Shown: positions 7,739 through 47,911 of the stretch, in pieces
Layout of the letters: each line of letters begins with the position of its first letter
How positions within the stretch are numbered: the stretch's first letter is position 1
IMG/VR virus record: IMGVR_UViG_3300030098_006079
Direction: 5' to 3' (one strand)
DNA: 64,000 nucleotides
From: a virus
Taxonomy: Duplodnaviria; Caudoviricetes
Program-made: the position numbers and the translations under genes
Notes under the pieces: model-generated
What the model was told of the DNA's origin: nothing
Databases searched by the model: none
The model's input: the letters and a program-made list of their open reading frames with translations, nothing else

Positions 7739-7742
7739 AATA

Positions 7743-8315
7743 TTATATTATACACATTCTGTGTATACTCCATGGCTTTCCTTTCCAATCTCTTTTTTCA
7801 TTTTCAAAATTAAGTTTATCGTAAATATCTAAATCTGCTGGTTTCACGTAATATTGGTTGTAAAACTTCTCGCTCCATTTATAACCTTTACGCTCGAATG
7901 TTATTACCCCGTCGTATTTTTCATAATCCATAATAAATGCAACTTCGAAATCAATAATATAAATAGTGTTATTATTAATACAAATATTTGACGGGTGTAT
8001 GTCTTTATATAAAATGTTATTTTTCTTTAGATTATAAAATATATTTTCTAGTTGTAATTCTATGTTGTTTATTGTACCTTTATCATGTTGTTCCACGATT
8101 GTATTACCACAATATGACATAGAGAATGATAAATTGCTATAATTTATTTTTTTTAATACTGGAAACGGATATATGTTGTAGTATTTTTTTTCAAAATTTT
8201 CTTTTAGTATTTTTAAACAAGTAATTTCGTTGTTAAAAAATACATCTCTCCCAGGAGCAAATTCTTTATATACTAAATTTTGTTCTCTATCAAATGATAT
8301 GTTTGTTTTCTTCAC
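7743..8315 (-). CDS. Protein-kinase-like fold kinase (RIO/LPS-sugar kinase-like)
   Basis: VYK, NEITCLK, catalytic loop YKDIHPSN and IIDFE. Confidence 0.7.
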   Translation of the reverse strand: MKKTNISFDREQNLVYKEFAPGRDVFFNNEITCLKILKENFEKKYYNIYPFPVLKKINYSNLSFSMSYCGNTIVEQHDKGTINNIELQLENIFYNLKKNNILYKDIHPSNICINNNTIYIIDFEVAFIMDYEKYDGVITFERKGYKWSEKFYNQYYVKPADLDIYDKLNFENEKRDWKGKPWSIHRMCII

Positions 8316-8317
8316 AA

Positions 8318-10939: not shown

Positions 10940-12699
10940 TTTAGTTTTTCTATTAAGTATTTTTTATCTAAAAATAAATAATCTAGATCTGTAGTTTCAA
11001 GCGCTTCAAACGCACTTGAATATCTAGTTAGAATTGGTTTACCTTTTATATTAAAGGATGTGTTTAATATTACTGGTATAAGATCTTGATTTTCCATTTC
11101 ACATAAAATATCGTAAAAAAAGCTATGTTGTTCTCTTGTTACTGTTTGTAATCTCGCTGTATTGTCTATATGAGTTATAGATTGTAATTTTTCTCTATAC
11201 TCTTCCCGTACTGTAGGTGCAAAACTCATATATGGAGAATCAAAAGCATTTTCAAAAAATTTATTTTTATCTTCTTGACGGCACACAGGTGCAAACGGTC
11301 GATACCATTCTCTAAATTTTATCTTCGCGTTTAGTATATCTTTCATACCAGGGTCAGGTTTACAAATTATACTTCTATTACCTAACGCTCTCGGTCCTAA
11401 CTCAGATTTATCATGAGCACACCCTATAATTTTACCTTTTTTAATCTGTGCTACAACATCAGAGATAGTAGATGTTGTTTTTAAGTTGTATTTTTCTTTA
11501 TATGGTTCTATGCTATCTAGCATTGGTATACCATTATATGCGAGGTTAGGTCTTCTTTTTGGAAACTCTAAAAAGAACATACCTTGACTCAAACCGGAGT
11601 CGTTCGGGTTATTACAAACAAAAACATCTAGATTATAATCTTCTTTAAATACTTCCGCAATGCGCTGATTTACTAAAACATTAAGCGCACAACCACCTGT
11701 TAATATAATAGGTATTTTTTTTCGCTTACCAAGAGGATGTAACACTTCAAGTACTACTTCTTCCATTGCTTGTTGTAATGATGCTGCATAATCTGCTGCT
11801 TCCTCTACTGGAATGTTTTCTAAATATTCGTTTCGATTAGTATGATAACTTCTTGCAGCGTCTTTAAACCAGCCTTTAAACTCTTCTACTACATCTTTTT
11901 TAGCTTTTCCGTATGCCGTATACCCCATGTATTTACCAGGTGCTGCCAGTCTTGTATCTGACTCTTTATGTCGTAAACTTAACCAATCTATTTTACCGTT
12001 TGGATATTTTATTTTCGCATTAACGCTAACCATAGTATATGGCCCACCATAACGGTATGGTTTTGTTGTTTTTACGTATTTTATACCGTATTTTTTATTA
12101 AAGTTTTTTGCATAGAATAAAATACCAGTATTATAATCTAAACCTTTTATTTTTTTAAGTGTTTTTTCACATTCTGGTTCTCTACGTGATGTACGTAAGG
12201 TGTCACCAGAACCGTCGAATGAAAATATAAAACATTCTTCAAATTCTTGCGGTGCTTGATAATAACCGCTAGCGGCGTGCGCATAATGATGGTTAGGTTT
12301 AAATATAATTTTTGCTTCTTTGAAGATAGGTTTTAACATATCGTTAAAAACTTTTATAAAATGCGGATCAAAACCGAAGGTGCTTTTATGTTTATTTCGT
12401 TCTGCGCTTCTTAATTTTAAAATATTTGGATCTTCATACACTCTAGCTCTGTGTATAATTAAGACGATCTTTTTAATTATGCTCGGATCTTTTACTAATG
12501 TAGAAAGGTATTCTAGGTATGGTTTAAACGCTGTATCAATACAAGATACACCTCTGAACCATGCTCGTGCTCTGTTATATTTCGTATTAGCCCAGCGGTC
12601 GTATTCTATTGTTGTTAGTTGATTGTTTTTATCAACCAAAGTCGCATTTACGTCATGACTTACTGCATATATTGTGAGTAAATTCTCTTCTTTTATCAT
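10936..12699 (-). CDS. NodU/CmcH-family carbamoyltransferase
   Basis: SHDVN, HHYAHA, SFDGSGD, GKYMGYTAYG, GGCALNV, NDSGLSQG, ELGPRALGNRS, REWYRPFAP, THIDNTARLQTV and LNTSFN. Confidence 0.92.
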   Translation of the reverse strand: MIKEENLLTIYAVSHDVNATLVDKNNQLTTIEYDRWANTKYNRARAWFRGVSCIDTAFKPYLEYLSTLVKDPSIIKKIVLIIHRARVYEDPNILKLRSAERNKHKSTFGFDPHFIKVFNDMLKPIFKEAKIIFKPNHHYAHAASGYYQAPQEFEECFIFSFDGSGDTLRTSRREPECEKTLKKIKGLDYNTGILFYAKNFNKKYGIKYVKTTKPYRYGGPYTMVSVNAKIKYPNGKIDWLSLRHKESDTRLAAPGKYMGYTAYGKAKKDVVEEFKGWFKDAARSYHTNRNEYLENIPVEEAADYAASLQQAMEEVVLEVLHPLGKRKKIPIILTGGCALNVLVNQRIAEVFKEDYNLDVFVCNNPNDSGLSQGMFFLEFPKRRPNLAYNGIPMLDSIEPYKEKYNLKTTSTISDVVAQIKKGKIIGCAHDKSELGPRALGNRSIICKPDPGMKDILNAKIKFREWYRPFAPVCRQEDKNKFFENAFDSPYMSFAPTVREEYREKLQSITHIDNTARLQTVTREQHSFFYDILCEMENQDLIPVILNTSFNIKGKPILTRYSSAFEALETTDLDYLFLDKKYLIEKLK

Positions 12700-12703
12700 A
12701 ATA

Positions 12704-13843
12704 TTATGTATTTTGTTCTATTTCCCCACCACTAGCAATTATTTTGTATTGTTCTTTTAGTGGTATATTATTATCTGCTAAAACTCTTATTTTAGATCTA
12801 TCTAATATACATTGTTTAGTATTTTTATTTGCTATTTTCATTATACGTTGAGGTATAATCATTTTATTAAAATATTCATACCCTAATTCCCCAGCATTAA
12901 TACCTTCTCTACCTAATACTTCACCACATACAATCTCTCCTGCTGCCCAGTTAATATCTATACCATAAGTTTTTAATAAATAGCGTGATTTTTCTACCAT
13001 ATCATATATTGTATCAAAATAACTTTTTATACTTCGAAGCATTTCAGTACCGCTACCTAAAATATACCAATCTTTCATATGTAAATATTGAGTTTTAGGT
13101 TTATAGATATCACAATCTCCTTTGTGTCGTTTTTTCGCATACATTGTTTCATTTAAAACCGATAACTCTTCGTATATAGTTCTGTTTATAGGTTGATGAT
13201 CTGTATGATTACCAGATTTATCTACTGCACCGTCCCATATTTGTAAGTCACCAAACTTACAAAATATACCTCTTTCTTGTTTTTCTAAACGATGATAAAA
13301 TAGTTTTTTATCAAATCTATAAAACCGTTCATCTTCGTACATATCAGGTGTAACGAACATTAGATCAGTTCTAATTCTAAAAATATAATCATATTCTTCT
13401 TCTATTAAATTCGCTACTCTTTCTAATGATGTAAATTGACCAAGATAATATTTTAAATGTTCAGGTTCACATATTTCAAAAATACTTTTTCCGAGATTGA
13501 GAGGTATCATCTTACCGTCTTCTTTGTAGAAATAATTTAAACCACCTTTTAACCCGTTTACAAATTCAAATAACTCATTACATTTTTCAGTTAGTGGTTG
13601 ATAATCAGTAAATTCATATTTTTTCGGTTTATAAATATCTAAGATTTTTTGTTTTTCTTCTTCAGTTATAGTTTCTTCAGGATCATGACTATGATATGCT
13701 ATTTTATCCCAAAAATGAAAGTAGTAATCAGTTGTACATCCTTCAAAAGTTGTCTCTCGTAAGATACTTTCGTAGCTTAAGTCCCAAAACCTTGGTTGTC
13801 CGTATAATAATACTGCTAATTTCATTTTATACTTTTTGTACAA
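12704..13843 (-). CDS. Uncharacterised 'GQPR' family protein, paralogue 3
   Basis: LAVLLYGQPRF, DYYFHFWD, YLGQFTS and YDYIFRIRTD. Confidence 0.55.
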   Translation of the reverse strand: MYKKYKMKLAVLLYGQPRFWDLSYESILRETTFEGCTTDYYFHFWDKIAYHSHDPEETITEEEKQKILDIYKPKKYEFTDYQPLTEKCNELFEFVNGLKGGLNYFYKEDGKMIPLNLGKSIFEICEPEHLKYYLGQFTSLERVANLIEEEYDYIFRIRTDLMFVTPDMYEDERFYRFDKKLFYHRLEKQERGIFCKFGDLQIWDGAVDKSGNHTDHQPINRTIYEELSVLNETMYAKKRHKGDCDIYKPKTQYLHMKDWYILGSGTEMLRSIKSYFDTIYDMVEKSRYLLKTYGIDINWAAGEIVCGEVLGREGINAGELGYEYFNKMIIPQRIMKIANKNTKQCILDRSKIRVLADNNIPLKEQYKIIASGGEIEQNT

Positions 13844-14441
13844 CTAATAACGACATCGATCTCTCTATTACTTTACATTTTTTTGTGCTTATTAATAATT
13901 CATCTACAGCTTTCGCAACAGCGACATTTTCTTTCATTGCGTCATCGATGTAATCCTTCTCATCCAGATAATCATGAAAAATAGCAAACCCTGACAACGT
14001 TAAATTATCCCAAAAATTAAGTATATCTTTTTTTACACCTTCATACCTATGGTCTCCATCAACAAACAAAATATCGTAAGTATGGTTTAATTTTATATTT
14101 TCAGACTTATCTTTAATTAATGTAAGTTGTCCAGTTTCAATAAATTGGTTTACAAAATCTTGTGAATTTTTTGTTGTCTTATCTATGCTGATCACTGGTA
14201 CATTTGAACTTTCAGCAATTAAGTATGTAGATCCTCCAAACCTATGACCTATTTCTACTATTCTTTTTTTTGCTTGTTTACAATATTTTAGTAACACTTC
14301 AGCTTCCGGTATATAAAGTCGAATCCAACTACGACCACCTATATATTTTCGTCCGTTCTTTTCTTTAATCCATAAATGCCGATACTTTTTATCTAAAGTT
14401 GTAATATCTTCCCATTTTTCATGTTTTCTTGGCTTCTTCAT
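13827..14441 (-). CDS. Class I SAM-dependent methyltransferase (Methyltransf_24-like)
   Basis: VEIGHRFGGST, ISID, DILFVDGDHRYEGVKKD and IFHDY. Confidence 0.85.
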   Translation of the reverse strand: MKKPRKHEKWEDITTLDKKYRHLWIKEKNGRKYIGGRSWIRLYIPEAEVLLKYCKQAKKRIVEIGHRFGGSTYLIAESSNVPVISIDKTTKNSQDFVNQFIETGQLTLIKDKSENIKLNHTYDILFVDGDHRYEGVKKDILNFWDNLTLSGFAIFHDYLDEKDYIDDAMKENVAVAKAVDELLISTKKCKVIERSMSLLVVQKV

Positions 14442-14444
14442 AGA

Positions 14445-15503
14445 CTAATCAGTTATAAAATCAGTTAAATTACCCCAATCATGGTTGTGATAAAAATAAT
14501 TTCGGTTTAATACCTTTAAAAACATAACATGCTCTGGGTGACTTGAGTCAAAAATGTTATGTATTTGAAATTCCTTGTCTGTAAATGTACCCCAGTTGTA
14601 TATTCTCGATGTATATGAGTTAAAATTATGAGCTTGTGCAATTTGAATAAACTCAGGTATACTTTTATAGTTATTTTTTTGTACACACATGTCTAATCTT
14701 ACTTCTTTTAATCCAATCTGTTGTATGAAGTGAAGATTCTTCATTAATCGGTTCCAATCTCCTCCAACTCTAACTTTATCGTAGTGGTCTTGTATGCCTG
14801 CGTCTAAACTAATTATAGCGCTAATATTATCTGTAATTTTATGAAGATTTTTTAATCGTTCCCATCTATTCTCATCAAACAAAACTCCGTTTGTTTGTAA
14901 GCTGATACTTATTTCCGGGTTCTTCTTTAAATCAATCTTTTTCATTAACTCAAAGAAAGATGGAGAGCCAAATGGATCACCTGAACCTGTAATATTAAGC
15001 TGTACTTTATGAGGTTTACTATGAATCATTCGCAATAAGCGTTTATTAATCATCATAGTAGTTTTATACTTGTCAGGATTATTTTTCTCTCCGTACTGAA
15101 TCAAATTTTTTCTACAACTAGGACATTTTAAGTTACAGGATTTATCGTAGCATAAATTAATTGTGTTAGGAGGTTGTGCTACATCCATTTCAAACTCTAA
15201 AATGAATTTCATTTGATCCCCATACTTACCATCTAGGACATCTTGTCTTGTCGGTAAGGTTCCGTTTTGTATTTTAGGACATTCTTCATGATTACACATA
15301 CTAAATGACCCATCGAGAATAGATCTGCGAAACATTTTACTGCGCTTACTATTCCATTCTTCGTAAAAGTCTAAATCAGGAGTAAGATCTCCAATCCTAT
15401 TGTGGTTAACCCATCGTGGACAGCAATTAAATAATCCTTTTTCTTGTATTTCCAGAAACGTCCATGGATGTTCACAAAATTTAGTTGAAAGATCCTTTTG
15501 CAT
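14445..15503 (-). CDS. Radical SAM protein with N-terminal SPASM/twitch-like domain
   Basis: CNLKCPSC (CxxxCxxC), TGSGDPF and LQTNG; N-terminal FCEHPW...CC...EWN...C...C. Confidence 0.85.
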   Translation of the reverse strand: MQKDLSTKFCEHPWTFLEIQEKGLFNCCPRWVNHNRIGDLTPDLDFYEEWNSKRSKMFRRSILDGSFSMCNHEECPKIQNGTLPTRQDVLDGKYGDQMKFILEFEMDVAQPPNTINLCYDKSCNLKCPSCRKNLIQYGEKNNPDKYKTTMMINKRLLRMIHSKPHKVQLNITGSGDPFGSPSFFELMKKIDLKKNPEISISLQTNGVLFDENRWERLKNLHKITDNISAIISLDAGIQDHYDKVRVGGDWNRLMKNLHFIQQIGLKEVRLDMCVQKNNYKSIPEFIQIAQAHNFNSYTSRIYNWGTFTDKEFQIHNIFDSSHPEHVMFLKVLNRNYFYHNHDWGNLTDFITD

Positions 15504-18911: not shown

Positions 18912-19433
18912 ATGAATTTAGTAGAGAGAATACCAATCGGGAGTAAATTTCCCGACACTATAAATTGTATTATTGAGATACCGAAAGGTACAAGCGCGAA
19001 ATATGAATATAACGAAGAGTTAAACATATTTCAGCTAGCAAGGTGCTTGTACAGCTCGATGATATATACAGCATCGTACGGCTTCATACCTCAAACCTAT
19101 GCGCTTGATGATGACCCATTAGATATTATTGTTTATAACAATATACCTATACAAACCGGTGCATTGGTTGAAGTTAGGCCAATCGCGACGTTAGATATGA
19201 CCGACAATGGAGATAAAGACTATAAAGTCGTAGCTGTACCTGTAAGTCATGTCAAGGAATACCGCACATTAAAGGATCTTGAACCACACTGGGTTAGTAC
19301 TACTCTTAATTTCTTCTCTCATTATAAAGATCTTGAAGATAAAGTAGTTGAGATAGACGGGTGGTTGTCTAAATCCCGTACTAAAAAAATAATTACCGAC
19401 GCTCACAATAGATACAATGCCAAAAACAATTAA
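18912..19433 (+). CDS. ppa: Family I inorganic pyrophosphatase
   Basis: IIEIPKG, KYEY, YGFIPQT, DDDPLD, DNGDKDYK and FFSHYKDLE. Confidence 0.92.
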   Translation: MNLVERIPIGSKFPDTINCIIEIPKGTSAKYEYNEELNIFQLARCLYSSMIYTASYGFIPQTYALDDDPLDIIVYNNIPIQTGALVEVRPIATLDMTDNGDKDYKVVAVPVSHVKEYRTLKDLEPHWVSTTLNFFSHYKDLEDKVVEIDGWLSKSRTKKIITDAHNRYNAKNN

Positions 19434-32260: not shown

Positions 32261-32291
32261 AAAGAGCGCCCGAAAGGGCGCTCTTTTTTTT
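32261..32291. terminator. Bidirectional intrinsic terminator
   Basis: AAAGAGCGCCC-GAAA-GGGCGCTCTTT followed by a T tract, between convergent gp23 and queF. Confidence 0.9.
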
Positions 32292-32308: not shown

Positions 32309-33220
32309 TTATTGTCTCAATGTTTTGATCCACGGAACCGTATGATCCCAAAAGAACTCATCAATCAAATATTCATGAGTAGTTCTAATAGGGTTAATGT
32401 CCCAACCACCTCGTCGTACATATAAACATGCTACCATAAGGGACCGCGGCTCAAAAGTATTATTCAATCTAGTAAAAATAGTCTCACAAATCTCTTCATG
32501 AAAATGACATTCATCTCTAAAAGAGATAATATACTTTAACAATTCTTTATCAGATGGATGCTTGGTACCTTCAAGAGAGATAAACACATCACCCCAGTCA
32601 GGTTGAGAAGTAACACGACAGTTACTCTTAAGTAAGGATGACATTACTCTGTAAGGCTTATTAGTAGAGTTCAAATGCTTTGTCTCTAACAAGCCGGGTG
32701 TTTCACTATAAACATTTACATAATAACTCTCTGCATCAATCTCATCAGTATTTTCTAATCTCTTATAGTTCTTATCAGTAAAAGGATTATCATTACTAAA
32801 TGTATCGCTTGTAGGAAATACAGTAACTCTTACATCTGTCTGAAGATACTTACTCAAGTCTTTCGAAGCTGTATCTTCTAGATTCTTAATTACCTTATCA
32901 AACGTATCTCCCATCTTAGTCATATTGAATGTATTCCAATACAACTTCATAGATTTAGATTCAACGATATACTTACTATCAGAAGGATATACTACTTTAG
33001 CAACCCCGCAAACAGGCACACCATTATTAGTTAATGCTGATATCTCGTAACCATTCCATACATCACAACCAATAAAAGGTAAGCTCTTTTCTTTAATGCC
33101 TAAGTGCTTACGATTACTCGATCGTGGTTCTCTCACTAACAGACTTGCATCATACTCAGATTTATACTGACTAGACTGTCCTAAGTGCTTACTAATATTT
33201 TTATTATCTAGTTTTGACAT
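32309..33220 (-). CDS. queF: NADPH-dependent 7-cyano-7-deazaguanine reductase (bimodular type)
   Basis: LGQSSQY, WNGYEIS, ESKSMKLY, LKSNCRVTSQPDWG, FHEEIC and RRGGWDINP. Confidence 0.92.
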   Translation of the reverse strand: MSKLDNKNISKHLGQSSQYKSEYDASLLVREPRSSNRKHLGIKEKSLPFIGCDVWNGYEISALTNNGVPVCGVAKVVYPSDSKYIVESKSMKLYWNTFNMTKMGDTFDKVIKNLEDTASKDLSKYLQTDVRVTVFPTSDTFSNDNPFTDKNYKRLENTDEIDAESYYVNVYSETPGLLETKHLNSTNKPYRVMSSLLKSNCRVTSQPDWGDVFISLEGTKHPSDKELLKYIISFRDECHFHEEICETIFTRLNNTFEPRSLMVACLYVRRGGWDINPIRTTHEYLIDEFFWDHTVPWIKTLRQ

Positions 33221-33758
33221 CTTCAATAATCTCTATCATCTTATTATATCTACTCTCTACACTTCCTTCCAGTACATAAATATTAGGATACTTCCCTAAT
33301 ATCAATTCTTCATATAGTTTAATAATTTGACTTCTAAAACTCTCACTCATAGATCTTTCTCCATCATTGATAAGAGGAACATCATAAGGATTAGTATAGA
33401 AGATACAATCATACTTTTCTATATATCTACCTAATGCATAACTAAACATTTTATCTACAAACTCATTTACTTTACCTTGTATTCTAAAATATCTAGTATA
33501 AACAAAACCATCTACTATACAACGATCTAAGATATTGTTCATATCTTTACCGCTATAAGTAAATAAATTTTGAATATGATCAGCAAAAATAGCTAACTGC
33601 GTATCATTATAGTTTGAACCATCGTCGTTAATCTCAAAACCACCACGCCGGATACGTCTTGTAACCTCATCGACTGAGCCCCATGCATTTGACTCTAAGA
33701 ATTCGCGCAACAGAGTAGTTTTACCACTACTCTGTGCGCCTGTAAAAGAAACTAACAT
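33204..33758 (-). CDS. P-loop nucleoside/nucleotide kinase-like protein (AAA_28/NadR-like)
   Basis: GAQSSGKTT, DEVTR, ILDRCIVDG and DGERS. Confidence 0.7.
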   Translation of the reverse strand: MLVSFTGAQSSGKTTLLREFLESNAWGSVDEVTRRIRRGGFEINDDGSNYNDTQLAIFADHIQNLFTYSGKDMNNILDRCIVDGFVYTRYFRIQGKVNEFVDKMFSYALGRYIEKYDCIFYTNPYDVPLINDGERSMSESFRSQIIKLYEELILGKYPNIYVLEGSVESRYNKMIEIIEDVKTR

Positions 33759-34108
33759 TATTTACCCCAGACACCATTATCGACTATCTGAGCGATTTTG
33801 CAATATAAACTTGAATCTTTCCATGCATCTTGAATAGGTTCATTAGCAGCTTCAGCAGTACGTTTCTTAATGACGAGATTAATGAGTCTCTGTACTTTAT
33901 CATTAACACGGAATACTAGTCCAGCTTTAGCAACTAAACGGCCATCCGGTTTAGATAAGTCCTGACCTACAGAAATATTAGTAGGGCCATAGTCGTATTG
34001 CTTATTAATAAATAGCTTGTATTCTTCTTCGAGAAGATCTCTCAACATTGCACATGTCTCAGGATAATCATTCTCTACTTCCGCCTTGATTTCAGTGTAA
34101 TCTTTCAT
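33758..34108 (-). CDS. Nmad1/DUF1599-like all-alpha nucleotide-modification-associated protein
   Basis: KQYDYG, FRVNDKVQRLINL and EPIQDAWKDSSLY. Confidence 0.65.
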   Translation of the reverse strand: MKDYTEIKAEVENDYPETCAMLRDLLEEEYKLFINKQYDYGPTNISVGQDLSKPDGRLVAKAGLVFRVNDKVQRLINLVIKKRTAEAANEPIQDAWKDSSLYCKIAQIVDNGVWGK

Positions 34109-34664
34109 TTAAAAAATTTATCCAAAGTTTTGTAGATTCAACATGAAGAGCTTTTTCTAGTTCTTCATATGTATTAAAGTTATTATCTATAATTGCATTT
34201 GCAACAATAGGACCATCATCGAGCTCGGGCGTTACCTTATGAATAACGCACCCAGCTCGATCATGTTTTGCTTCCCAAGCTTTTTTCTGAGGGTTAAAGC
34301 CTTTCAATTCTGGATAGATATCAATAGCGCCTGGATGACCATTATAGATGTTTGATGATCTAGTAAAGTCAGGAGGTAATATTCTCAGATACCCGTGCAA
34401 AGTAACAAACACCCCTTTAGCCCAATCATCATTAAGAATAGAATAGTTAAGAGCATCAGCTGCTTTAAGATAATCCATCTCTTTTGGCCATTTAGGTAAT
34501 CGTACAAACGGGAGACCTCCTGTTGACCTCTTATAGATCAATTCAATATTTGTACCTATATCTTCTTGTCTATTAGTAACAATAAGATCAGGCCATCTTT
34601 TGATCTGTTTAGAGATGTTTACAATTTCAGAACCAGTCTGACTATAAAATGCTACCCACTTCAT
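34092..34664 (-). CDS. dpdN: PurN-paralogue formyltransferase, candidate dPreQ1 formyltransferase
   Basis: FYSQTGSE, TLHGYLRIL, YNGHPG, GCVIHKV and LDDGPI; flanked by queF and a TGT-like gene. Confidence 0.7.
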   Translation of the reverse strand: MKWVAFYSQTGSEIVNISKQIKRWPDLIVTNRQEDIGTNIELIYKRSTGGLPFVRLPKWPKEMDYLKAADALNYSILNDDWAKGVFVTLHGYLRILPPDFTRSSNIYNGHPGAIDIYPELKGFNPQKKAWEAKHDRAGCVIHKVTPELDDGPIVANAIIDNNFNTYEELEKALHVESTKLWINFLNERLH

Positions 34665-35494
34665 TACCAATATCTTCTTTTAATAATTCTTTTGAACTGA
34701 CTTGTATTATACAAAATACGCTCTACTGCATCTTCATCAGGTTGCGCACCTATTAAGTCTGCTAACAGTTGTGATGGTTTATGATCTAGACCGAAGTCTC
34801 CATTATAGGTATAACCTAACAGACCTGCTACAACTGGATTAGATGTATCTAAGCTTCTAATATTATAGATATTATTATCTACATACCATCTAAACTCACT
34901 CGCAAGTGACGCACCTAACAAATGATGAGGTTTATTCCAGTCCCATTCTCCTTCGTCAATTAATCTTTTAACTAGATTCTGTCGTCCAGTGGATTGCCTT
35001 TTCAATTTAGCGTTTTCATCACAAATATGGCTAATGCCTGTAACATGATACATACTAAAATCGAAACTGATAGCGACATAATCCGCATTATTTTTCATAA
35101 AGCGATAACAATCTACTACCTCTGACCAAGTATCGCCTTGAACTGCTCCTATTCTAGCGCCTGGTAATTTACCATAGTTAGCTCGAAAATCTTTAAAATG
35201 ACTTATTGTCGCTGGTCCATTTTCAAGAACATCAGGGACAATATAATAATTAGGTTTAATCTTCTCACACCAAATAGCGTATTTGTCAGCATCAAACGCT
35301 TCTTTTAGTTCAAAGATAGAATTATCTAAGAGAATCTCTCCATTAGGTACTTTAGCTCTATATTTTTCTAGAAACCATTCTTTATATTCTTCTTGTTCTT
35401 CCATTAGATGGACTAAACAATATTGATAATCATTGTATTCTACCGATTCTGGTAGGAGAGCTATAGGAGATTCGTGCGATACCTTAATCGTCAT
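34664..35494 (-). CDS. dpdA: TGT-fold 7-deazaguanine DNA transglycosylase candidate (DpdA3-like)
   Basis: ILLDNSIFE, IVPDV, GAVQG, HLLG and SLDTSNP are TGT-barrel motifs; operon context supports the call. Confidence 0.65.
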   Translation of the reverse strand: MTIKVSHESPIALLPESVEYNDYQYCLVHLMEEQEEYKEWFLEKYRAKVPNGEILLDNSIFELKEAFDADKYAIWCEKIKPNYYIVPDVLENGPATISHFKDFRANYGKLPGARIGAVQGDTWSEVVDCYRFMKNNADYVAISFDFSMYHVTGISHICDENAKLKRQSTGRQNLVKRLIDEGEWDWNKPHHLLGASLASEFRWYVDNNIYNIRSLDTSNPVVAGLLGYTYNGDFGLDHKPSQLLADLIGAQPDEDAVERILYNTSQFKRIIKRRYW

Positions 35495-35500
35495 ACTTTT

Positions 35501-35528
35501 ATTATAGTGGTTTCACTATAAAGATCAA
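35501..35528 (-). promoter_or_regulatory. Sigma70-like promoter of the deazaguanine operon
   Basis: TTGATC-N16-TATAAT on the minus strand, ending 6 nt before the ATG at 35494. Confidence 0.65.
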
Positions 35529-39275: not shown

Positions 39276-39698
39276 TTAAGCTACCTTAACATCAATTACT
39301 TTAGCTTCTTTACGAGCTTTCCGAGGAATAGTGATACTAAGTACCCCTTCTGAGATAGTAGCATCAAGCTCTGCACAATTCATCTCGTTACTTGGATGAA
39401 ATGAGCGAGTATATGTTTCTTCCTTACTACCAGTCTTAGTAGTAATTGAGCGCTTTGCCTCAACATATACATTATTAGATTCCTCAGAGTAAGTAACTTT
39501 GAGGTTTTCCTTCTTCACACCTGGAAGATCAATTTCAATGCGAGCACCATCTTCACTTTCATTAAAACGAATATTATCGTTTGAGAATGAAGCTGGAGTA
39601 GCAAAATTGTCTCCAAATGCAGTGTTGAATAAGTCAACGACTGGGCTGACTGACCCCGCCCGAGGGTTTGTTGTTAAGTAATTAAATAAGTTAGACAT
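39276..39698 (-). CDS. hsp20: Small heat-shock protein (Hsp20/alpha-crystallin)
   Basis: IDLPGVKKENLKV, YTRSF and ATISEGVLSITIPR; upstream TATAAATA box. Confidence 0.9.
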   Translation of the reverse strand: MSNLFNYLTTNPRAGSVSPVVDLFNTAFGDNFATPASFSNDNIRFNESEDGARIEIDLPGVKKENLKVTYSEESNNVYVEAKRSITTKTGSKEETYTRSFHPSNEMNCAELDATISEGVLSITIPRKARKEAKVIDVKVA

Positions 39699-40033: not shown

Positions 40034-41047
40034 ATGGCAACGGTTAAGAAGGCTAGATTATTTCTACGTAGAGGAACTGATACAGATAGAAAAACCTCAG
40101 TTCTGTGTTCTGGTGAGCTCGGTTACTCAACTGATGCATTTAGAGTTTTTATAGGTGATGGTGCTACATTAGGTGGTAACCCAGTTGGTATTACATCTTT
40201 TATGAGCGCGGGTTCTGCGTTTCATACAGATCTTGTTGAAGCATCAGCAGCCGGCTACGCATTCAAAGGTGATTTTGCTTTATTCCCATCTAAAACATAT
40301 CTTAATTTAAATAATACTCAAATTACTCCCCCGACAGGTTTTGCTGTTGCCATGGTATTAACAGGTGAAGATGGAGCTAGTAATGCTCAATCATGGGTTG
40401 CTTTAAACTCAGGCATTCCGTTTGGTAATATTGTTGTAGGTGACGATGAAATCTCAGCTGATAAAATTCACGGTGGTACGTTTTCTGGTGATGTAAATTT
40501 TGAAATGTCATCTGCGACAACTAAGCTTAGTAGTTTATCAGTTTCCCACTTAACAGCTTTTAATGCGACAATTTCTGGTGCTGGTGGTAGCGGTCATAGA
40601 TATGTTTTATCTGACCCAGACGGTAAGCTATGCAACTCAGCTGAGACATATGATATCGGTAATACGGGTATTCAATGGCTTACTCTTTATCACGAAATAA
40701 CAGCGCGAGACCCATCAGCATCTACTGTACCTGGACATAATCAAGATCATGAATATACCTTGCCGGCAGCCGTGCCGTCATCTGCTACATCTGTATTATT
40801 AGCTGGTACTTGGCGAAGAAACGATCGCATGAACCCGCCTGCTATCTTATATGCTGGTGATGTACATGCTCATTTCATTCTCGCCCAAGCATGGGTTGCT
40901 AATGATGAATTAGCGGCAGGAGCGTTCCAATCATGGATACCGATTGGTGCTAATAAAAAAATTAAAATTAAATTTAATGATAAGTGGGCTGGATTAACAG
41001 GCAATTCTACTAGCCAATGGGGTCTAAGTGCTATAGCTTGGATGTAA
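40034..41047 (+). CDS. Tail fibre/appendage protein with an MTD-N-like N-terminus
   Basis: LRRGT...GELGYSTD...FIGDG N-terminal module; late box upstream. Confidence 0.7.
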   Translation: MATVKKARLFLRRGTDTDRKTSVLCSGELGYSTDAFRVFIGDGATLGGNPVGITSFMSAGSAFHTDLVEASAAGYAFKGDFALFPSKTYLNLNNTQITPPTGFAVAMVLTGEDGASNAQSWVALNSGIPFGNIVVGDDEISADKIHGGTFSGDVNFEMSSATTKLSSLSVSHLTAFNATISGAGGSGHRYVLSDPDGKLCNSAETYDIGNTGIQWLTLYHEITARDPSASTVPGHNQDHEYTLPAAVPSSATSVLLAGTWRRNDRMNPPAILYAGDVHAHFILAQAWVANDELAAGAFQSWIPIGANKKIKIKFNDKWAGLTGNSTSQWGLSAIAWM

Positions 41048-41536
41048 TTAGTTTTCCCAAGGAAATACTATCCATTCATCATTATCAAACTCTTTCACTG
41101 TATGGTGAGGCATGAATGTAGATTTAGGTTTGTAATATAATGTAGAATAAACCCATTGATTTTGCTCTGGTCTTTCCCATGTGACTATATTATCTATTTG
41201 TTTAACTTTACGAAGAGTCATTCCAGTATCAGCTAAATCATCTACTATAAGTATTTTCTCTTCATCTCTCAATGTACCGAAGTCTGGAAATGTAACTAGC
41301 TTTACTACATCAGTTTCTGAATGTTCTCCATCTCGAGGTTTATCATCTACATAAGACTTTAAATTTGCGGAAAGCAGTTTATCTACTTTAAGATACTTAG
41401 CTAATAAGGTCGCAGGAATCATACCTCCATTAGCAATTCCAATAATACAGGTAATTTTTTCTTTTGATAAATTATCTGCTAAGGTTTTGCAGTCTTGTTT
41501 TATATCATCCCAGGTCAAATAAGTTTTATTAGGCAT
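41048..41536 (-). CDS. Purine phosphoribosyltransferase (Gpt-like)
   Basis: LTWDDI, IANGGMIPA, PRPP motif LIVDDLADTG and WIVFPWE. Confidence 0.88.
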   Translation of the reverse strand: MPNKTYLTWDDIKQDCKTLADNLSKEKITCIIGIANGGMIPATLLAKYLKVDKLLSANLKSYVDDKPRDGEHSETDVVKLVTFPDFGTLRDEEKILIVDDLADTGMTLRKVKQIDNIVTWERPEQNQWVYSTLYYKPKSTFMPHHTVKEFDNDEWIVFPWEN

Positions 41537-41767: not shown

Positions 41768-44700
41768 ATGTCAATGTCAGTCTATAGTGAAGTCGTCGCG
41801 GAATCTGCTTTTGGATATCATAGAGATCGTGTTTTAGATACTCTACAAAATCCAGATTTAGATTTACCTTATAATTTAGATACTATAAAGATTAGTCATA
41901 ACGACTTTGCTGTTTCTGATGTATATAACGACAGTATAAAAAAATTATATAGTAACTATTTGTTTTTAATTGCTAATGCAGAAATTACTACTAATATTTC
42001 TCCTTTAACATCGAATATTGGTTATGTAAAATATGATGCAAATAATGCTGCCACTAAAGTTGCTATTACTACAGCGCCTCAAGACGGTACTGGAACAAGT
42101 AATTTGTCTGGTACCGTAGAAACGTTTGTAACAAACAAAATTGACAGTAGTAATAAATTAGTATTCTTTAATTATAGTATCTCAGACAATAATGTGTTTG
42201 AAGCTAACTATGACTTAACAAATCTTTCTACCTCAATTAATGATAGGTTTGTAGAGTTTAATAAAACATTTACGTTTAATAATGTTGTGAGTGTTGATTC
42301 TATCGGCTCAACATTATTTGTTTTAGATAAAGGATTAAACACTGTATTTAAATTCGATGTAACTGGTTTATTAGCTGATGATCCAGCTCTAAAAAGAACG
42401 AGTTATACTGATACAGAACATCCTGGTAGGTTTTTGTTAAAGACAATTGGTGGTCAAGGTACATCTCAAACTAAAAATAAATTATCCAACCCGAGTAGTT
42501 TATCAGTTTATAAAGATAGAATTTATATATTAGATAATGGTAATAATAGTGTTAAAGTTTTTGATTTAGATTTTAATTTTTTACATGAATTATCCAGCCC
42601 TGAATTGTTTAATAATCCTAATTTTGGTGAACCTGTCTCAATTGTAGTAAGTAAGAAGTTTAATACTTTAGATATACCATGGGGTTACATTTTAACAAGT
42701 AGAGGAAATATTTTAGAGTATGATGTAAGAGAGAATAGGTATGGTGTTGTTCATTCACCATATGATATATATGATACAAGATTACAAACTCTATCCTCTT
42801 ATAATGAAACAAGTAGTTGGAAGAAAATTATTAATTCTAAGTCTGACGATAATATACTTTATATAGCTAATGACAAAGAAATATATAAATTTTATAAAAC
42901 TAATTTTAACTTACCAGTTAGTGTACTAAATTTACGTAAAGCAAATATTAGTATGAATAACGATAGTTCTGGTCAGCGTATTTTGTCTTTTGATAATACT
43001 TTATATGATGGCGCTGATTATTTAGCTATAACAACAGTTTTAAATAAAGATAATAGTAAGACTCAAACATATGTAGTAATGGATAAAAACATTCCTACAA
43101 AACTATATAATGAAAGTTTTTATACTAATTACTTCTCTTTATCAGATATATTAATTTTACCGCAAGAGATTGTTAACAATATTACATTTAACAAAACTAC
43201 AAAAAAACTTTTATATAATCATTATTCTTTATTTGAAAATATTAATAAAAAAGTTTATAGTTATTATCAAGATGTAAGTGGTTATGCTATTGTTCCTACA
43301 TTATGTACTGTAACAGGAAAAGACTTTACAAAGCCAACTAGTTTTGATGATACACCGAATTTGTATATTGGTATTAATGAACCTATTTTAACTGATGTAA
43401 TAAATAGACCATTAGAAATTTTGTATGATCAACAAAAAGATATATTTAATACATTAAAAGAAGAGAGTCTTAATAATAACCCTCCGTCAAACATACCGTC
43501 TCAGTTACCTGGTAGATATGAAAACGCTTTGAATGTTCTTACTTTAACAGCAACCCAGGCTTCAGTTGCAGCTGGTGAGAGTGTACAGATTGGAGTTGTA
43601 AGAACCAACGCATTGAGCTTATCAAGTAATTGTTCGTTTAAATTTTGGACTACGCTAGGTACCGCTGCGAAAAAAGATTTAGAGTATATAGACGAGGAAA
43701 ATCCAAGTATACTTGAATTTGAGCGCGGTGAAACTGAAATTACATTCCCGCTAGGTACTTTTAAAGAATTTAATAGTACTGAAAAAACATTCTCAGTATA
43801 CATTGAACAAGATGTAAATTGTGTTATTGATTATAATTATCAAAAACTTGATGTTACGATTACACCAATTGAAGATATGTACTCCGTTAGTGTGTCAACT
43901 TCGTTTGTTAATATGAAGGAAGGACAAAATAATCGCGTAGGTTTCGTCCGTCATAATGTAAATGGAGACTATAAAGAGCGGACTGGTATATTAGTTGAAA
44001 TTGATACTGATTTAAGTGATTCTGTATATATACCAAATATTGCTTCTGTTGATACGCACACAATTATCACTGGTTCAACATCTCAACAAGACATGCCTGG
44101 TGTTCCAGGTGGTACAGATCTGTTTATGGCATCTGCAGCTGAAATAAAAGACACAGGAACAATTTGGTTTAATGAGGGAGTAAGTTCAGTAGTGTTTGAT
44201 ATTAGTGCTGTGAATGATTTATCTCAAAATACAGGTAGTAAAAAGTTAGATATAGTTATAAAAAATCCAACTGTTGGATCTAATATATCTCCTCTTGAAA
44301 AAAGAGATTATATTGACCCGAGTAGAACATCTGTATTTATTGGTGATGCGGAACCGAAACCTATATTTTTAAATTTAACAAGTATAGCGCCATTATATTC
44401 AGCTCATGACGCACCGTTTGTAGTACCTGACGTAAACAGCGGAACTATTACAAACATGGTGAGTAATGTTAATATATGGGAAGCTTTAGTTATGAGCACG
44501 GCTGAGAGTAACACAAATGCATTTTCTGCTGTTTCAGCTTCTCATCCAATTAGTGCTTGTTTTACAGTTAATGCTCCTTTATCTGTTATATCAGTATCAG
44601 CTTTATCTGGCGCGTTAGATTTTGCACCACCAAGCAATGCAGAAGGACAGTTTGTATATACTAATAATAGAATAGATATTATTATTGAAGAGGGTGCTGC

Positions 44701-45490
44701 TGTTGTAGGTAAAGGTGGTCGAGGAGGTCATGGTTGGTTATGGGAGTCAGGAAGCGATTTTGCTTTTAACGGTACTGATGATATTTCAATATATAATCAG
44801 CGTATCGGTGAAGATGGTGGTCCTGCTATTGGTAATTTTGATACTTATTTTGATAACTTTACTATTACAAATGCTGGTTCTGTTATAGGTGGAGCTGGTG
44901 GAGGTGCTCCTGGTCATGTTGGTTTAAGTGCTTCTGTTATGCATCACGTTTCTGCTTTATCAGCTGGTAGTGGTGGTGGAGGTGGAGCGGGTATACATGT
45001 AAGTAATGCTGGTTTAGGTGGTTTGGCTGCGGTTGGAGAATCTACACAAAATTCTTTATATACGTTTAGTTTTCGTAGAGATGGTTTCCCTGGCGGTGTT
45101 AACGTTGGTGGTGAGGGTGGTGGTCATCATGACGCAGGAGGTACAAATCATACATACCCATTTGTACCTATACGAGTACTACCTGGTAGTAATTCAACTA
45201 CAGATATTGGAGACGGTACAGGTACACCAGCTAACTTACATATTAATGTAACTAAATATCCTGTCTTGTGTGGTAAAAACGGTGGTAATATTGGAGAAGC
45301 GGGTGGTACAGATACCAGCGCAGTTGAACCAGATCAAACACCCGCTACAGGTACGAGCTTTAGTACAGTGTCAGATGAGTTTGCAGAAAGAACTGGTGGT
45401 CTTGCTGGTAAACTTATGGATACTTCAAAACAGGTCACATATAGAGGGTCGGGACATAAAAAGGGTGACGAAACTAATATAGTAGAATAA
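41768..45490 (+). CDS. Large multidomain virion/adhesin protein (NHL propeller, Calx-beta-like repeats, gp38-like Gly-rich C-terminus)
   Basis: LSNPSSLSVYKDRIYILDNGN (NHL), LEFERGETEITF and IWFNEGVSSVVF (Calx-beta-like), VVGKGGRGG...ITNAGSVIGGAGGG. Confidence 0.65.
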   Translation: MSMSVYSEVVAESAFGYHRDRVLDTLQNPDLDLPYNLDTIKISHNDFAVSDVYNDSIKKLYSNYLFLIANAEITTNISPLTSNIGYVKYDANNAATKVAITTAPQDGTGTSNLSGTVETFVTNKIDSSNKLVFFNYSISDNNVFEANYDLTNLSTSINDRFVEFNKTFTFNNVVSVDSIGSTLFVLDKGLNTVFKFDVTGLLADDPALKRTSYTDTEHPGRFLLKTIGGQGTSQTKNKLSNPSSLSVYKDRIYILDNGNNSVKVFDLDFNFLHELSSPELFNNPNFGEPVSIVVSKKFNTLDIPWGYILTSRGNILEYDVRENRYGVVHSPYDIYDTRLQTLSSYNETSSWKKIINSKSDDNILYIANDKEIYKFYKTNFNLPVSVLNLRKANISMNNDSSGQRILSFDNTLYDGADYLAITTVLNKDNSKTQTYVVMDKNIPTKLYNESFYTNYFSLSDILILPQEIVNNITFNKTTKKLLYNHYSLFENINKKVYSYYQDVSGYAIVPTLCTVTGKDFTKPTSFDDTPNLYIGINEPILTDVINRPLEILYDQQKDIFNTLKEESLNNNPPSNIPSQLPGRYENALNVLTLTATQASVAAGESVQIGVVRTNALSLSSNCSFKFWTTLGTAAKKDLEYIDEENPSILEFERGETEITFPLGTFKEFNSTEKTFSVYIEQDVNCVIDYNYQKLDVTITPIEDMYSVSVSTSFVNMKEGQNNRVGFVRHNVNGDYKERTGILVEIDTDLSDSVYIPNIASVDTHTIITGSTSQQDMPGVPGGTDLFMASAAEIKDTGTIWFNEGVSSVVFDISAVNDLSQNTGSKKLDIVIKNPTVGSNISPLEKRDYIDPSRTSVFIGDAEPKPIFLNLTSIAPLYSAHDAPFVVPDVNSGTITNMVSNVNIWEALVMSTAESNTNAFSAVSASHPISACFTVNAPLSVISVSALSGALDFAPPSNAEGQFVYTNNRIDIIIEEGAAVVGKGGRGGHGWLWESGSDFAFNGTDDISIYNQRIGEDGGPAIGNFDTYFDNFTITNAGSVIGGAGGGAPGHVGLSASVMHHVSALSAGSGGGGGAGIHVSNAGLGGLAAVGESTQNSLYTFSFRRDGFPGGVNVGGEGGGHHDAGGTNHTYPFVPIRVLPGSNSTTDIGDGTGTPANLHINVTKYPVLCGKNGGNIGEAGGTDTSAVEPDQTPATGTSFSTVSDEFAERTGGLAGKLMDTSKQVTYRGSGHKKGDETNIVE

Positions 45491-45529: not shown

Positions 45530-47911
45530 ATGAAGTTCAGTAAACAAGCACAATCTGCTTTAGCAATTTCTAAAAGTTACGCAGAAGAATACAAATGTAG
45601 GTATGCAGGTACTGAACATTTACTCTTAGGTTTAATAGAGTGTGACGATGAATTCTTAAAAGAAACTTTCGAACGCTTAGAGGTTGATTTTATAGATTTA
45701 AAAGATGTTGTTGTTAGTATTTGTCAATTAGAAGAAAACAATAAACTTTTTAAATTAGATGCTGGTCCAAATTTTACCCCTCGTGTATTACGTATTATAG
45801 ATTTTGCAAAAGGTTTAGCTGAGAAGCTTTCAAAAAACAATGTAGATGTAATACATTTATTTTTATCTTTACTTTATGAAAATGATGGTGTTGCGACTTC
45901 TATTTTATCAGAATATGGATTAAATTTTAATAATGTTAAAACAGTTATACAAAAAGAAATAGGTAATTTTGATAATGAAACTAAAATTCAATCTTTATCT
46001 ATACCTGAAAGTCTCGAACCTTTTTTTAACGACCTTACATATCTAGCTGCAAAAAATGAACTACAACATACTTTTTCTCGTGACGCAGAATTTGATAAAA
46101 TATATTTAGTGCTTGGTAAGAAGCATAATACAAATATTATTATTAGTGGTGAGCCTGGTGTTGGAAAAAGGTCTGTAGTTTATGAACTCGCAAAACGTAT
46201 TACAAAAAAACTCACCCCACCTCATTTACAGAACAAAAAAATTCTTGAATTAAAATTAAAAACTCTTATTAGCGGAACAAAATTTAGAGGAGATTTTGAA
46301 TCAAGAATTGATACTCTTCATGAATATCTAAAAAAGAATAATGATATTATTTTATTTATTAATGATATAGCTCTTATTACTAGACTTGAAGGTACAACAA
46401 ATATAGAAGAATATTTTAGTGAACTGTTTAATAGAGATGATATTAATTTTATTGGTACGTGTACAGCAGATGACTATAAAAAATATATTGATGATATTAC
46501 TACTATAAGTTCTAACTTTGAAAATATTATAGTTAAACAAACAAGCAATAAAGAGACGAAAGAGATTTTAAACACTATGATACCTACATATGAGAAATAT
46601 CATAATGTTAAATTTGAGCGCGATATTATAGATAATGTTATAGATTTATCTAGCCGATATATTGTAGATAAAAGTCAACCTTCCTGTGCATTAGATCTAC
46701 TAGATGAGTGTGGCTCATATATTAAAAACCAAATAGGTAGTACATCAGAACAATTGGTACAGTTACAACAAAAAATAGATAAATTAAATGAACAAAAGCT
46801 TGAAGCAGTAAAATCTTATGATTTCGAAACTGGTCTTAAATTATTAAGAAGAGAGACTACATTATCTAATAAGTTAAAAAAGGAACTCACTGACCGTAAG
46901 CAAGTTGAATTTGATAAAATTATAACTCGCTCGATAGTTAATAGAATTGTGAGTACTAAAACTGGTATACCACTATCAGATATATCAGGAAGTAGCTTAC
47001 CTGACTTAAATAAAGTCCAGAAAAAATTAACCGACAAATATGTATCTCAGAAAAAAGCTATCGATTCTATACTGTATCATTTTAAGAGAGTTAAAACTGG
47101 ATTACAAGACCCAAATAGGCCACTTGGATCATTTCTATTTATAGGGCCTACTGGTGTAGGTAAAACATATTTATGTGAGCTTATTTCTGAATACTTTTTT
47201 TATAATAAACAAAACTTTTTAAAAATAGATATGTCAGAATATATGGAACCTCATTCAGTTAGTAAATTGATTGGGTCTCCTCCAGGTTATGTTGGTTATG
47301 GTGATAGGTCTGTTTTATGCGATTTTATTAAAAACACTCCATACAGTTTAATATTACTTGATGAAATTGAAAAGGCTCATCCAGATGTTGTTAATATATT
47401 TCTACAAGTTTTAGATAAAGGTGAATTAACTGATAGTGTAGGTAGAAAAATAAATTTAAAAAATTGTATTATAGTATTTACTAGTAATATTGGTGCTGAT
47501 TTATTTGATAAAAACGCAATTGGTTTTGGTAGTTCGGCTATTAGTTCTATGGATTTAGAAAACTCGTTACAGAAATTTTTTAAACCTGAGTTTTTAAATA
47601 GATTATCTGAAATTATTAGATTTGAGCATTTAGATCAAGATGACATATATAATTTAGTTGATATCGAAACAAAAAAATTCGTTGCAAAATTACAGCAAAG
47701 TAACAATATTTTGTTTGTGTTAGATGATGATGCGCGTGAGTACATAGCTGAACAAGGATATAGCCGCAAATATGGAGCTCGATTCCTTAAGAGGTTTTTC
47801 GAGAAACATATTGAAACAGAAATAGCGACTCATATTATCCGAAGTAAAACTAAGCTCAAAAAAATCACTTGCAATTACTCCTCTAATAAGTTAATATTTA
47901 CCACATGCTGA
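45530..47911 (+). CDS. clpC: ClpC-like Hsp100 AAA+ ATPase
   Basis: Clp-N repeats (GTEHLLLGL, HLFLSLL), UVR-type M-domain, intact D2 (GPTGVGKT, LLDEIEKAH, GYVGY), IGF loop and YGAR. D1 is degenerate. Confidence 0.88.
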   Translation: MKFSKQAQSALAISKSYAEEYKCRYAGTEHLLLGLIECDDEFLKETFERLEVDFIDLKDVVVSICQLEENNKLFKLDAGPNFTPRVLRIIDFAKGLAEKLSKNNVDVIHLFLSLLYENDGVATSILSEYGLNFNNVKTVIQKEIGNFDNETKIQSLSIPESLEPFFNDLTYLAAKNELQHTFSRDAEFDKIYLVLGKKHNTNIIISGEPGVGKRSVVYELAKRITKKLTPPHLQNKKILELKLKTLISGTKFRGDFESRIDTLHEYLKKNNDIILFINDIALITRLEGTTNIEEYFSELFNRDDINFIGTCTADDYKKYIDDITTISSNFENIIVKQTSNKETKEILNTMIPTYEKYHNVKFERDIIDNVIDLSSRYIVDKSQPSCALDLLDECGSYIKNQIGSTSEQLVQLQQKIDKLNEQKLEAVKSYDFETGLKLLRRETTLSNKLKKELTDRKQVEFDKIITRSIVNRIVSTKTGIPLSDISGSSLPDLNKVQKKLTDKYVSQKKAIDSILYHFKRVKTGLQDPNRPLGSFLFIGPTGVGKTYLCELISEYFFYNKQNFLKIDMSEYMEPHSVSKLIGSPPGYVGYGDRSVLCDFIKNTPYSLILLDEIEKAHPDVVNIFLQVLDKGELTDSVGRKINLKNCIIVFTSNIGADLFDKNAIGFGSSAISSMDLENSLQKFFKPEFLNRLSEIIRFEHLDQDDIYNLVDIETKKFVAKLQQSNNILFVLDDDAREYIAEQGYSRKYGARFLKRFFEKHIETEIATHIIRSKTKLKKITCNYSSNKLIFTTC

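Follow-up and report, generated by a model that had tools for sequence, protein, structure and literature searches.

How some phages replace every guanine of their DNA by a 7-deazaguanine is an open question, and the sole published proposal is a post-replicative exchange by DpdA3, whose activity has never been demonstrated. In this work, we analysed a stretch of 64,000 nucleotides from an uncultured virus (Duplodnaviria; Caudoviricetes; IMG/VR record IMGVR_UViG_3300030098_006079), called the window below, where five minus-strand genes at 32309-35494 form a 7-deazaguanine operon: dpdA3, dpdN, a DUF1599/Nmad1 gene, a P-loop kinase gene and queF. We are highly confident that this operon encodes the late steps of the DpdA3/DpdN-type replacement of genomic guanine by 7-(formylamino)methyl-7-deazaguanine. 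As to the mechanism, the gene identities and associations lead us to favour a pre-replicative route in which the base would be exchanged on free nucleotides, with a probability of about 0.5. An earlier note, made from the letters of this stretch, had suggested that guanine is replaced, or its replacement policed, in the nucleotide pool; comparison of related loci gives this suggestion strong support. The points which that note took as established (preQ1 formation by QueF, formylation proposed for DpdN, complete guanine replacement linked to DpdA3) agree with the literature (PMC10516641).

The five genes of the operon

An open reading frame (ORF) check found all five frames where the earlier note had placed them, and the identities it had given them proved right, each with family support of its own:

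34664-35494, minus strand: dpdA3, TGT-fold 7-deazaguanine transglycosylase, 276 residues, no Zn subdomain (identity to Flavobacterium phage immuto, and model)
34092-34670, minus strand: dpdN, PurN-like formyltransferase, 192 residues, likely start ATG at 34664 (Pfam, identity to immuto)
33758-34108, minus strand: DUF1599/Nmad1 four-helix protein, 116 residues, DpdN partner (predicted structure and language-model features)
33204-33758, minus strand: AAA_28 P-loop kinase of the nucleoside/nucleotide kinase class, 184 residues (Pfam, phrog_2107, PDB profiles)
32309-33226, minus strand: queF, bimodular NADPH-dependent preQ0 reductase, 305 residues, likely start ATG at 33220 (Pfam, TIGR03138)

Four of these genes are collinear orthologues of immuto genes, with 33-47% identity. 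Searches with DpdA3 gave no Pfam, NCBIfam or PDB sequence match; the protein shares 44% identity with the annotated immuto DpdA (1e-64) and 39-41% with the DpdA3 homologues of CP220-type Campylobacter phages. Its AlphaFold model (pLDDT 89.3) has a TGT barrel, and the top 50 Foldseek matches were all TGT (E about 2e-7). Structure comparison gave Z 18.1 to the DNA preQ0 insertase DpdA, 7ui4 (root-mean-square deviation, rmsd, 3.1 over 235 aligned residues), and Z 17.8 to bacterial TGT and to archaeal TGT (ArcTGT). With one E. coli Tgt sequence as its partner, DpdA3 gave a weak hhalign result (1% probability), and we relied on the fold searches and MAFFT for this point; a PDB profile search with the DpdA3 alignment gave nothing useful. 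In the MAFFT alignment, which compares sequences and not residues in structures, D57 and D216 align with D89 and the nucleophile D264 of E. coli Tgt. Both are invariant in 20 family members and 7 distant DpdA3 sequences, and C129 is the sole invariant cysteine. The segment that holds the C-terminal Zn site of E. coli Tgt (CxCxxC...H) is a gap in all DpdA3 sequences aligned; the window protein, about 140 residues shorter than the DNA-acting DpdA, has no Zn/C-terminal part. It belongs to a large family that is abundant in aquatic viromes: one search gave 3332 homologues at E <= 0.001, another 2787 representatives at 50% identity.

DpdN matches Formyl_trans_N of Pfam (5e-11; 43.1 bits against a cut-off of 26.1) and is 41% identical to immuto DpdN; its gene shares an operon with dpdA3 and queF. 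Against E. coli PurN, hhalign gave 98%, and N110, H112 and D151 match PurN N106, H108 and D144; this Asn-His-Asp triad is invariant in 23 sequences. A G-S loop is kept where PurN binds the phosphate of GAR. The natural substrate of PurN is a ribonucleotide bearing a primary amine. DpdN is found fused to DpdA3 in P0138 and P0203, and to Nmad1, joined at the DpdN C-terminus, both in locus L078 and in proteins of at least 21 clusters (302-325 residues, many samples). A complex prediction for DpdN with Nmad1 scored 0.02 and counts neither way.

The 116-residue protein gave no match to the PF07659 model up to E 10, and its homologues matched at E 0.0023 and 0.073, under the gathering score; the fused relative P0292 carries PF07659 in precomputed matches. 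The structural model fits that of an Atlas cluster with 68% PF07659 members (TM-score 0.89 over 116 residues, rmsd 1.7), and by language-model features 73 of 100 Atlas matches carry PF07659 (score 0.96). By predicted structure and such features, the protein is a DUF1599/Nmad1 member. The earlier note had in addition taken it for MazG-like; sub-threshold matches hint at such a relationship, but neither profile nor fold searches gave a significant match to MazG-type enzymes. Foldseek with the model against RS21-C6 dCTPase and iMazG gave E 2-4, and the sole full-length structural match, 2p06 (Z 7.9), lies within helical-bundle noise. The hhalign comparisons with the immuto PRA-PH-like gp63 and with the DUF5664 group were insignificant: the DYG/KYG motifs line up, yet the probability is <1%. 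PDB profile searches with the Nmad1 and DUF5664 alignments yielded nothing useful. One Atlas cluster carries both MazG and DUF1599.

The kinase (Pfam AAA_28, 52.4 bits against a cut-off of 27; phrog_2107) carries a P-loop, a DRC motif and an Arg-rich LID, with G7, G12, K13, D78-R79-C80, R135 and R142 invariant in 25 sequences. Its PDB profile matches are 6gye, 8puu and 2pbr (1e-4 to 4e-4), and its nearest solved relatives are all small-molecule kinases, namely the ribosylnicotinamide kinase (RNK) of NadR, a deoxynucleoside kinase and thymidylate kinase. It is 33% identical to immuto gp68 and matches CP220 gp057 at 99.9% in hhalign. The kinase is not new to the window phage, since immuto and CP220 carry orthologues; the word 'kinase' is absent from the 2023 immuto paper (PMC10516641). 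QueF is recognised by both of its Pfam domains (QueF_N 4.3e-32, QueF 1.7e-16) and by TIGR03138 (3e-76; 256.6 bits, under the equivalog cut-off of 293.45), and it is 47% identical to immuto QueF. The Cys segment SNC...QPDWGD is readable, and ESKSMKLY is presumably its version of the QueF motif.

The kinase and the slot upstream of it in related loci

The comparative sample consisted of the 80 closest IMG/VR DpdA3 loci, mostly of one T4-like lineage. In 75 of them a member of the kinase family is encoded within 10 kb of DpdA3, mostly 0-2 genes away; the sequence of one further locus stops at dpdA3. QueF was found in 73 loci, DpdN in 45, Nmad1 in 26 and DUF5664 in 11. At 65% DpdA3 identity the loci fall into 12 clusters, 10 of which have the kinase.

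Because the 80 loci are not independent, distant lineages were sampled as well. The kinase stands next to DpdA3 in four of six distant representatives, in varied orders and contexts: folE, dUTPase, MazG, dpdA3, a gene with no assigned family, kinase, queF (L087); kinase, dpdA3, a DCD-family gene, a YhhQ-type transporter gene (L088); queD, queE, folE, dUTPase, queC, kinase, dpdA3, Pol III alpha (L089); and dpdA3, kinase (L091). Even where QueF is missing, as in CP220, L088, L089 and L091, the kinase is beside DpdA3. MazG, dUTPase-like, DCD or HD genes flank DpdA3 in phiST, L087-L089 and CP220. Among 50,697 phage records, kinase matches were confined to Campylobacter and immuto records. Nearly all kinase-positive phage records also hold DpdA3, the few others having a weak DpdA3 match or being separate fragments of one phage. 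No longer proteins containing the kinase domain were found, which is weak evidence. The kinase profile matched the phiST P-loop protein gp041 at the P-loop only, and BSTP12_039 is a possible remote homologue (65% probability).

The results showed that the kinase, and not Nmad1, is the faithful companion of DpdA3. On this point the earlier note needs correcting: Nmad1 tracks DpdN, as the fusions and its restriction to DpdN loci (26/26) indicate. In these 26 loci, Nmad1 occupies the slot upstream of the kinase. In 11 other loci, all with DpdN and without Nmad1, the gene directly upstream of the kinase is PF18909 (DUF5664; E 3.6e-22), and the 35 loci that have no DpdN contain no NTP-pyrophosphatase-like gene inside the operon. 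The standalone DUF5664 protein of Arthrobacter phage Wayne converts dATP, dUTP and dGTP to monophosphates, and a dGTP/dATP pyrophosphohydrolase of another phage includes this domain (PMC12884076). Five loci of one sub-lineage carry a GMP reductase gene (NF003966, at its cut-off) between dpdN and Nmad1, and one locus has an inorganic pyrophosphatase gene between kinase and queF.

Several further observations concern the same loci. Two conserved genes, encoding about 180 and about 70 residues, always occur with DUF5664, between dpdN and the kinase (L023:2773-3318 and L023:3315-3530, and 8 other loci); neither belongs to a Pfam, NCBIfam or Atlas family, and Pfam had no match for several conserved neighbour clusters of the operons. 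The GMP reductase loci are L058 (11381-12340), L059, L064, L065 and L068; the L068 operon also has a radical SAM/SPASM gene, and that of L025 an ornithine cyclodeaminase-family gene. In L053 and L055, a DnaB/RecA-type ATPase gene lies just upstream of DpdA3 in place of the kinase. The DpdA3 of L087 (6001-7761; P0145) has a 316-residue N-terminal extension with no family match, and the gene of this locus between DpdA3 and the kinase, at the DpdN position, encodes 236 residues. In L088 (610-4086), the kinase gene is grouped with genes for a 419-residue DpdA3, a Vut_1/YhhQ-type transporter and a DCD-family deoxynucleoside triphosphate (dNTP) enzyme. The surroundings contain no biosynthesis genes, and import of preQ0 or preQ1 may take the place of synthesis in this phage. 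The distant DpdA3 of L089 (5001-6086; 361 residues) is extended at its C-terminus by 100 residues, whose KYG and RLDDKxxR motifs align with those of Nmad1 proteins (hhalign E 0.008, at low probability). This protein, from an operon that lacks DpdN and QueF, may be DpdA3 fused to Nmad1.

Where the guanine may be exchanged

The following route would account for this gene content. QueF, by its family function, would reduce preQ0, made by genes outside the window, to preQ1. An NTP pyrophosphatase would hydrolyse dGTP to dGMP; in the window the candidate is Nmad1, and elsewhere the related task might fall to DUF5664, MazG, dUTPase-like or HD proteins. In the central step, DpdA3 would swap the guanine of free dGMP, or possibly of dG, for preQ1. 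DpdN would then formylate the aminomethyl group at the monophosphate level, and Nmad1, often fused to it, would feed DpdN or return unformylated nucleotide to it. The kinase would rephosphorylate the product, whose incorporation host NDP kinase and phage polymerase would complete. Lastly, a xanthine/guanine phosphoribosyltransferase-like enzyme could salvage the released guanine to GMP and GTP, the precursor of preQ0. Two genes of the window outside the operon come into consideration here:

41048-41536, minus strand: xanthine/guanine phosphoribosyltransferase-like (XGPRT-like) gene (NF006613, 5.5e-25)
18912-19433, plus strand: inorganic pyrophosphatase gene (47% identity to the pyrophosphatase inside the L022 operon)

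The XGPRT-like protein is 32% identical to immuto gp60, whose gene is sited inside the immuto deazaguanine cluster, and guanine salvage for the pathway is a possible role for it. The pyrophosphatase is a possible sink for the pyrophosphate released by the NTP pyrophosphatase and phosphoribosyltransferase reactions, its link to the system being deduced.

By analogy with T4 and the Z-genome phages, DpdA3 together with a small-molecule-type kinase, and often with dNTP hydrolases and guanine-nucleotide enzymes, reads as the signature of a pre-replicative system. A precedent is provided by DmtZ, which moves deoxyribose 5-phosphate from a canonical deoxynucleoside monophosphate (dNMP) onto a free non-canonical base (PMC12884076). 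It is the DpdA3-kinase-hydrolase pattern and this precedent, taken together, which make us favour the exchange in the pool. We also counted in its favour the orthology and collinearity with immuto; the TGT barrel with both catalytic aspartates kept and the Zn part lost; GMP reductase or pyrophosphatase genes inside sister operons; the PurN triad and G-S loop kept by DpdN; and the DpdA3-DpdN and DpdN-Nmad1 fusions. From the literature, the complete replacement assigned to DpdA3, the failure of attempts to show any activity of DpdA3 expressed alone in E. coli, and the ADG nucleoside seen in CP220-infected cells point the same way (PMC10516641). The restriction of Nmad1 and DUF5664 to DpdN operons, along with the DpdN-Nmad1 fusion, fits a role like that of T4 gp56, in which nucleotides would be held as monophosphates and none but the formylated form would mature. 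The full proposal is somewhat more tentative, and we put it slightly below even odds: DpdA3 would be the first TGT-fold enzyme to act on a free deoxyguanine nucleotide or nucleoside, fdPreQ1, dADG and dDG genomes would all be made pre-replicatively via the kinase, and Nmad1 would be a gp56-like NTP pyrophosphatase module that feeds the formyltransferase.

Several points weigh against a pool-level exchange. We know of no TGT-superfamily enzyme that acts on a mononucleotide, the characterised members all acting on tRNA or DNA. Phage replication modules often contain dUTPase and MazG genes in any case. The NTP-pyrophosphatase-like genes track DpdN and not DpdA3, and catalysis by Nmad1, with no significant match to MazG-type enzymes, is a candidate role. 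The kinase is missing within 3-10 kb of DpdA3 in four loci of two lineages (L020, L021, L053, L055), and the counts are not independent, the cassette standing beside the capsid gene in 68 of the 80 loci. Since bacterial DpdA needs an ATPase partner, an NTPase beside DpdA need not be a nucleotide kinase. A literature search found no paper coupling 'pre-replicative' with 7-deazaguanine, and the published model has the insertion occur after replication (PMC10516641).

That model, the main rival, makes DpdA3 a DNA transglycosylase that acts after replication, putting preQ1 or formyl-preQ1 in the place of G. The P-loop protein would be an ATP-using helper, functionally analogous to DpdB, or a salvage kinase; Nmad1 would be a substrate-binding module of DpdN, like the C-terminal domain of Fmt; and the pyrophosphatases, GMP reductase and phosphoribosyltransferase would merely manage the guanine freed by the exchange. 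All characterised TGT/DpdA enzymes do act on polymers, the best structural match of the window DpdA3 is a DNA-acting DpdA (Z 18.1), bacterial DpdA needs the DpdB ATPase, and the P-loop gene beside phiST DpdA3 and CP220 gp055 have weak polynucleotide-kinase matches. The fusions would fit a DNA-bound complex equally well, and Hutinet et al. argue that DpdA is present in every 7-deazaguanine phage (PMC10516641). However, the kinase is a LID-type small-molecule kinase of 180 residues, not ParB-like and with no DNA-binding module, and no polynucleotide kinase is among its PDB matches. The Zn/C-terminal part found in relatives that act on DNA or tRNA is missing from DpdA3, which on its own was inactive in E. 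coli (PMC10516641). Moreover, an enzyme scanning DNA would hardly reach complete replacement, and a dGTP/dATP-to-dNMP hydrolase family and a GMP reductase in the operon have no clear role if replication needs dGTP. We regard exchange in replicated DNA as less likely than the pool-level route, and as the most serious of the alternatives.

Much less probable is a ribonucleotide route, where the XGPRT-like enzyme joins preQ1 to phosphoribosyl pyrophosphate (PRPP), the kinase yields the diphosphate, NrdAB reduces it and the polymerase incorporates the product, DpdA3 being left a side role such as correction of residual G or tRNA modification. The XGPRT-like gene is found both in the window and inside the immuto cluster, and NrdA and NrdB genes are present in the window and, in about 20 loci, 5-7 kb upstream of DpdA3. 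Yet a phosphoribosyltransferase gene lies within 10 kb of DpdA3 in only 19 of the 80 loci, while DpdA3 and the kinase are nearly always paired; RNA would also carry the base, and the universally conserved DpdA3 would be left with no main role. The best solved relative of the kinase, the RNK domain of NadR (8.6e-5), together with weak NadR model matches, might suggest a ribosylnicotinamide kinase that raises NAD(P)H for QueF, apart from base insertion. We rejected this role because the kinase persists beside DpdA3 in the absence of QueF (CP220, L088, L089, L091), and the NadR matches are all far under the curated cut-offs; it seems very improbable. Least probable of all, by our estimate, is that these genes modify tRNA in a queuosine-type supply, although the tRNA queuosine machinery also employs QueF and the TGT fold. 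In immuto, the orthologous set is associated with DNA that contains fdPreQ1 and lacks dG (PMC10516641), no tRNA genes were found in the window, and DpdA3 has no Zn/C-terminal subdomain of the tRNA-acting TGT.

The conserved DpdA3-kinase pairing and the interchangeable dNTP-hydrolase slot make the pre-replicative route testable in vitro with four small proteins. If the exchange on nucleotides is true, the TGT superfamily gains a new substrate class and DUF1599/Nmad1 a function, and an enzymatic route opens to 7-deazaguanine dNTPs, useful for restriction-resistant DNA.

Genomic setting and comparison with known systems

The five genes are tightly packed. The dpdA3/dpdN and Nmad1/kinase junctions overlap by 1 nt or abut, the dpdN/Nmad1 and kinase/queF junctions overlap by 17 nt, and the sequence TAATG is common to the dpdA3 stop and the likely dpdN ATG (34664). 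Such junctions indicate one translationally coupled unit, flanked by two signals:

35501-35528, minus strand: promoter-like site, sigma-70-like, TTGATC-16-TATAAT (consensus match, 10/12)
32261-32286, no strand assigned: strong hairpin with a G+C-rich 11-bp stem, between queF and the convergent gp23-like major capsid gene

The earlier note had placed five overlapping genes under one promoter. The genes and overlaps stand, and so does the position of the site. Nevertheless, we treat the site as a consensus match only, since such matches in the region are at chance level (19, with 17.1 in shuffles) and 6 nt separate the -10 box from the dpdA3 ATG; if used, this promoter would give a nearly leaderless mRNA. 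The hairpin is likely a bidirectional terminator. The cassette lies inside the structural module of a T4-like myovirus, flanked by the prohead protease and major capsid genes at one end and by the baseplate hub gene at the opposite end. As the earlier note had stated, folE, queD, queE and queC are not in the 64-kb window: tblastn with queries from immuto, phiST, BSTP12 and two metagenomic phages found none.

Elsewhere in the window, a minus-strand block of low GC content (0.26-0.31) with about ten genes (4973-15503) encodes a family-8 glycosyltransferase, a NodU/CmcH-type carbamoyltransferase, a radical SAM protein and a weak protein-kinase-like match; it resembles an island for sugar modification and seems to have no connection with the deazaguanine operon. 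There are also genes for an Hsp20 small heat-shock protein (39276-39698, minus strand), a full-length ClpB-like chaperone with two AAA domains (45530-47911, plus strand) and a 337-residue protein with an N-terminal Mtd_N (major tropism determinant) domain (40034-41047, plus strand). The last is followed by an ORF of 1240 residues (41768-45490) with no family match.

In the hydroxymethylcytosine pathway of T4, gp56 is the dCTPase, gp42 the dCMP hydroxymethylase and gp1 the dNMP kinase. The logic proposed here would be the same, with a canonical dNTP taken to the dNMP, modification at that level and rephosphorylation by a dedicated kinase; the protein families are unrelated, and the modification proposed for the window phage is a base exchange. 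The proposed mechanism also resembles the DutZ/DUF5664 and DmtZ route to dZTP in PurZ0 phages (PMC12884076); DUF5664 fills the Nmad1 slot in 11 sister operons. DmtZ, however, has a nucleoside deoxyribosyltransferase fold and not that of TGT, and its target is adenine rather than guanine. The bacterial DpdA/DpdB preQ0 insertase (7ui4), the best structural match of the window DpdA3, likewise couples a transglycosylase to an NTP-using partner, DpdA requiring the DpdB ATPase (PMC10164549). It differs in that DpdA has 413 residues and acts on DNA at low frequency, and DpdB belongs with the ParB-like ATPases rather than the LID-type kinases.

Among the phages, phiST, with its dDG genome, has the order folE, MazG, one ORF, a different P-loop protein, dpdA3. 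In CP220, where dADG replaces all G, a DpdA3 homologue is directly followed by the orthologous kinase; QueF, DpdN and Nmad1 are absent there, an HD-phosphohydrolase/P-loop fusion lies upstream, and the base is another one. The closest system is that of immuto, whose DNA contains fdPreQ1 and no detectable dG (PMC10516641). The immuto order is dpdA, a 50-residue ORF, dpdN, kinase and queF; the DpdA3, DpdN, kinase and QueF genes of the window are orthologues (44, 41, 33 and 47% identity) that follow one another alike, and the XGPRT-like gene is common to both. Immuto carries a PRA-PH/MazG-like pyrophosphohydrolase gene two genes upstream of dpdA, while the window has Nmad1 between dpdN and the kinase instead. 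In immuto the phosphoribosyltransferase gene lies among folE, queE and queD; in the window phage the preQ0 genes are elsewhere, and the cassette, unlike that of immuto, sits in the structural module beside the capsid gene. Taken together, these comparisons allow us to conclude that the operon is a diverged copy of the known DpdA3/DpdN fdPreQ1 system, carried by an uncultured T4-like phage.

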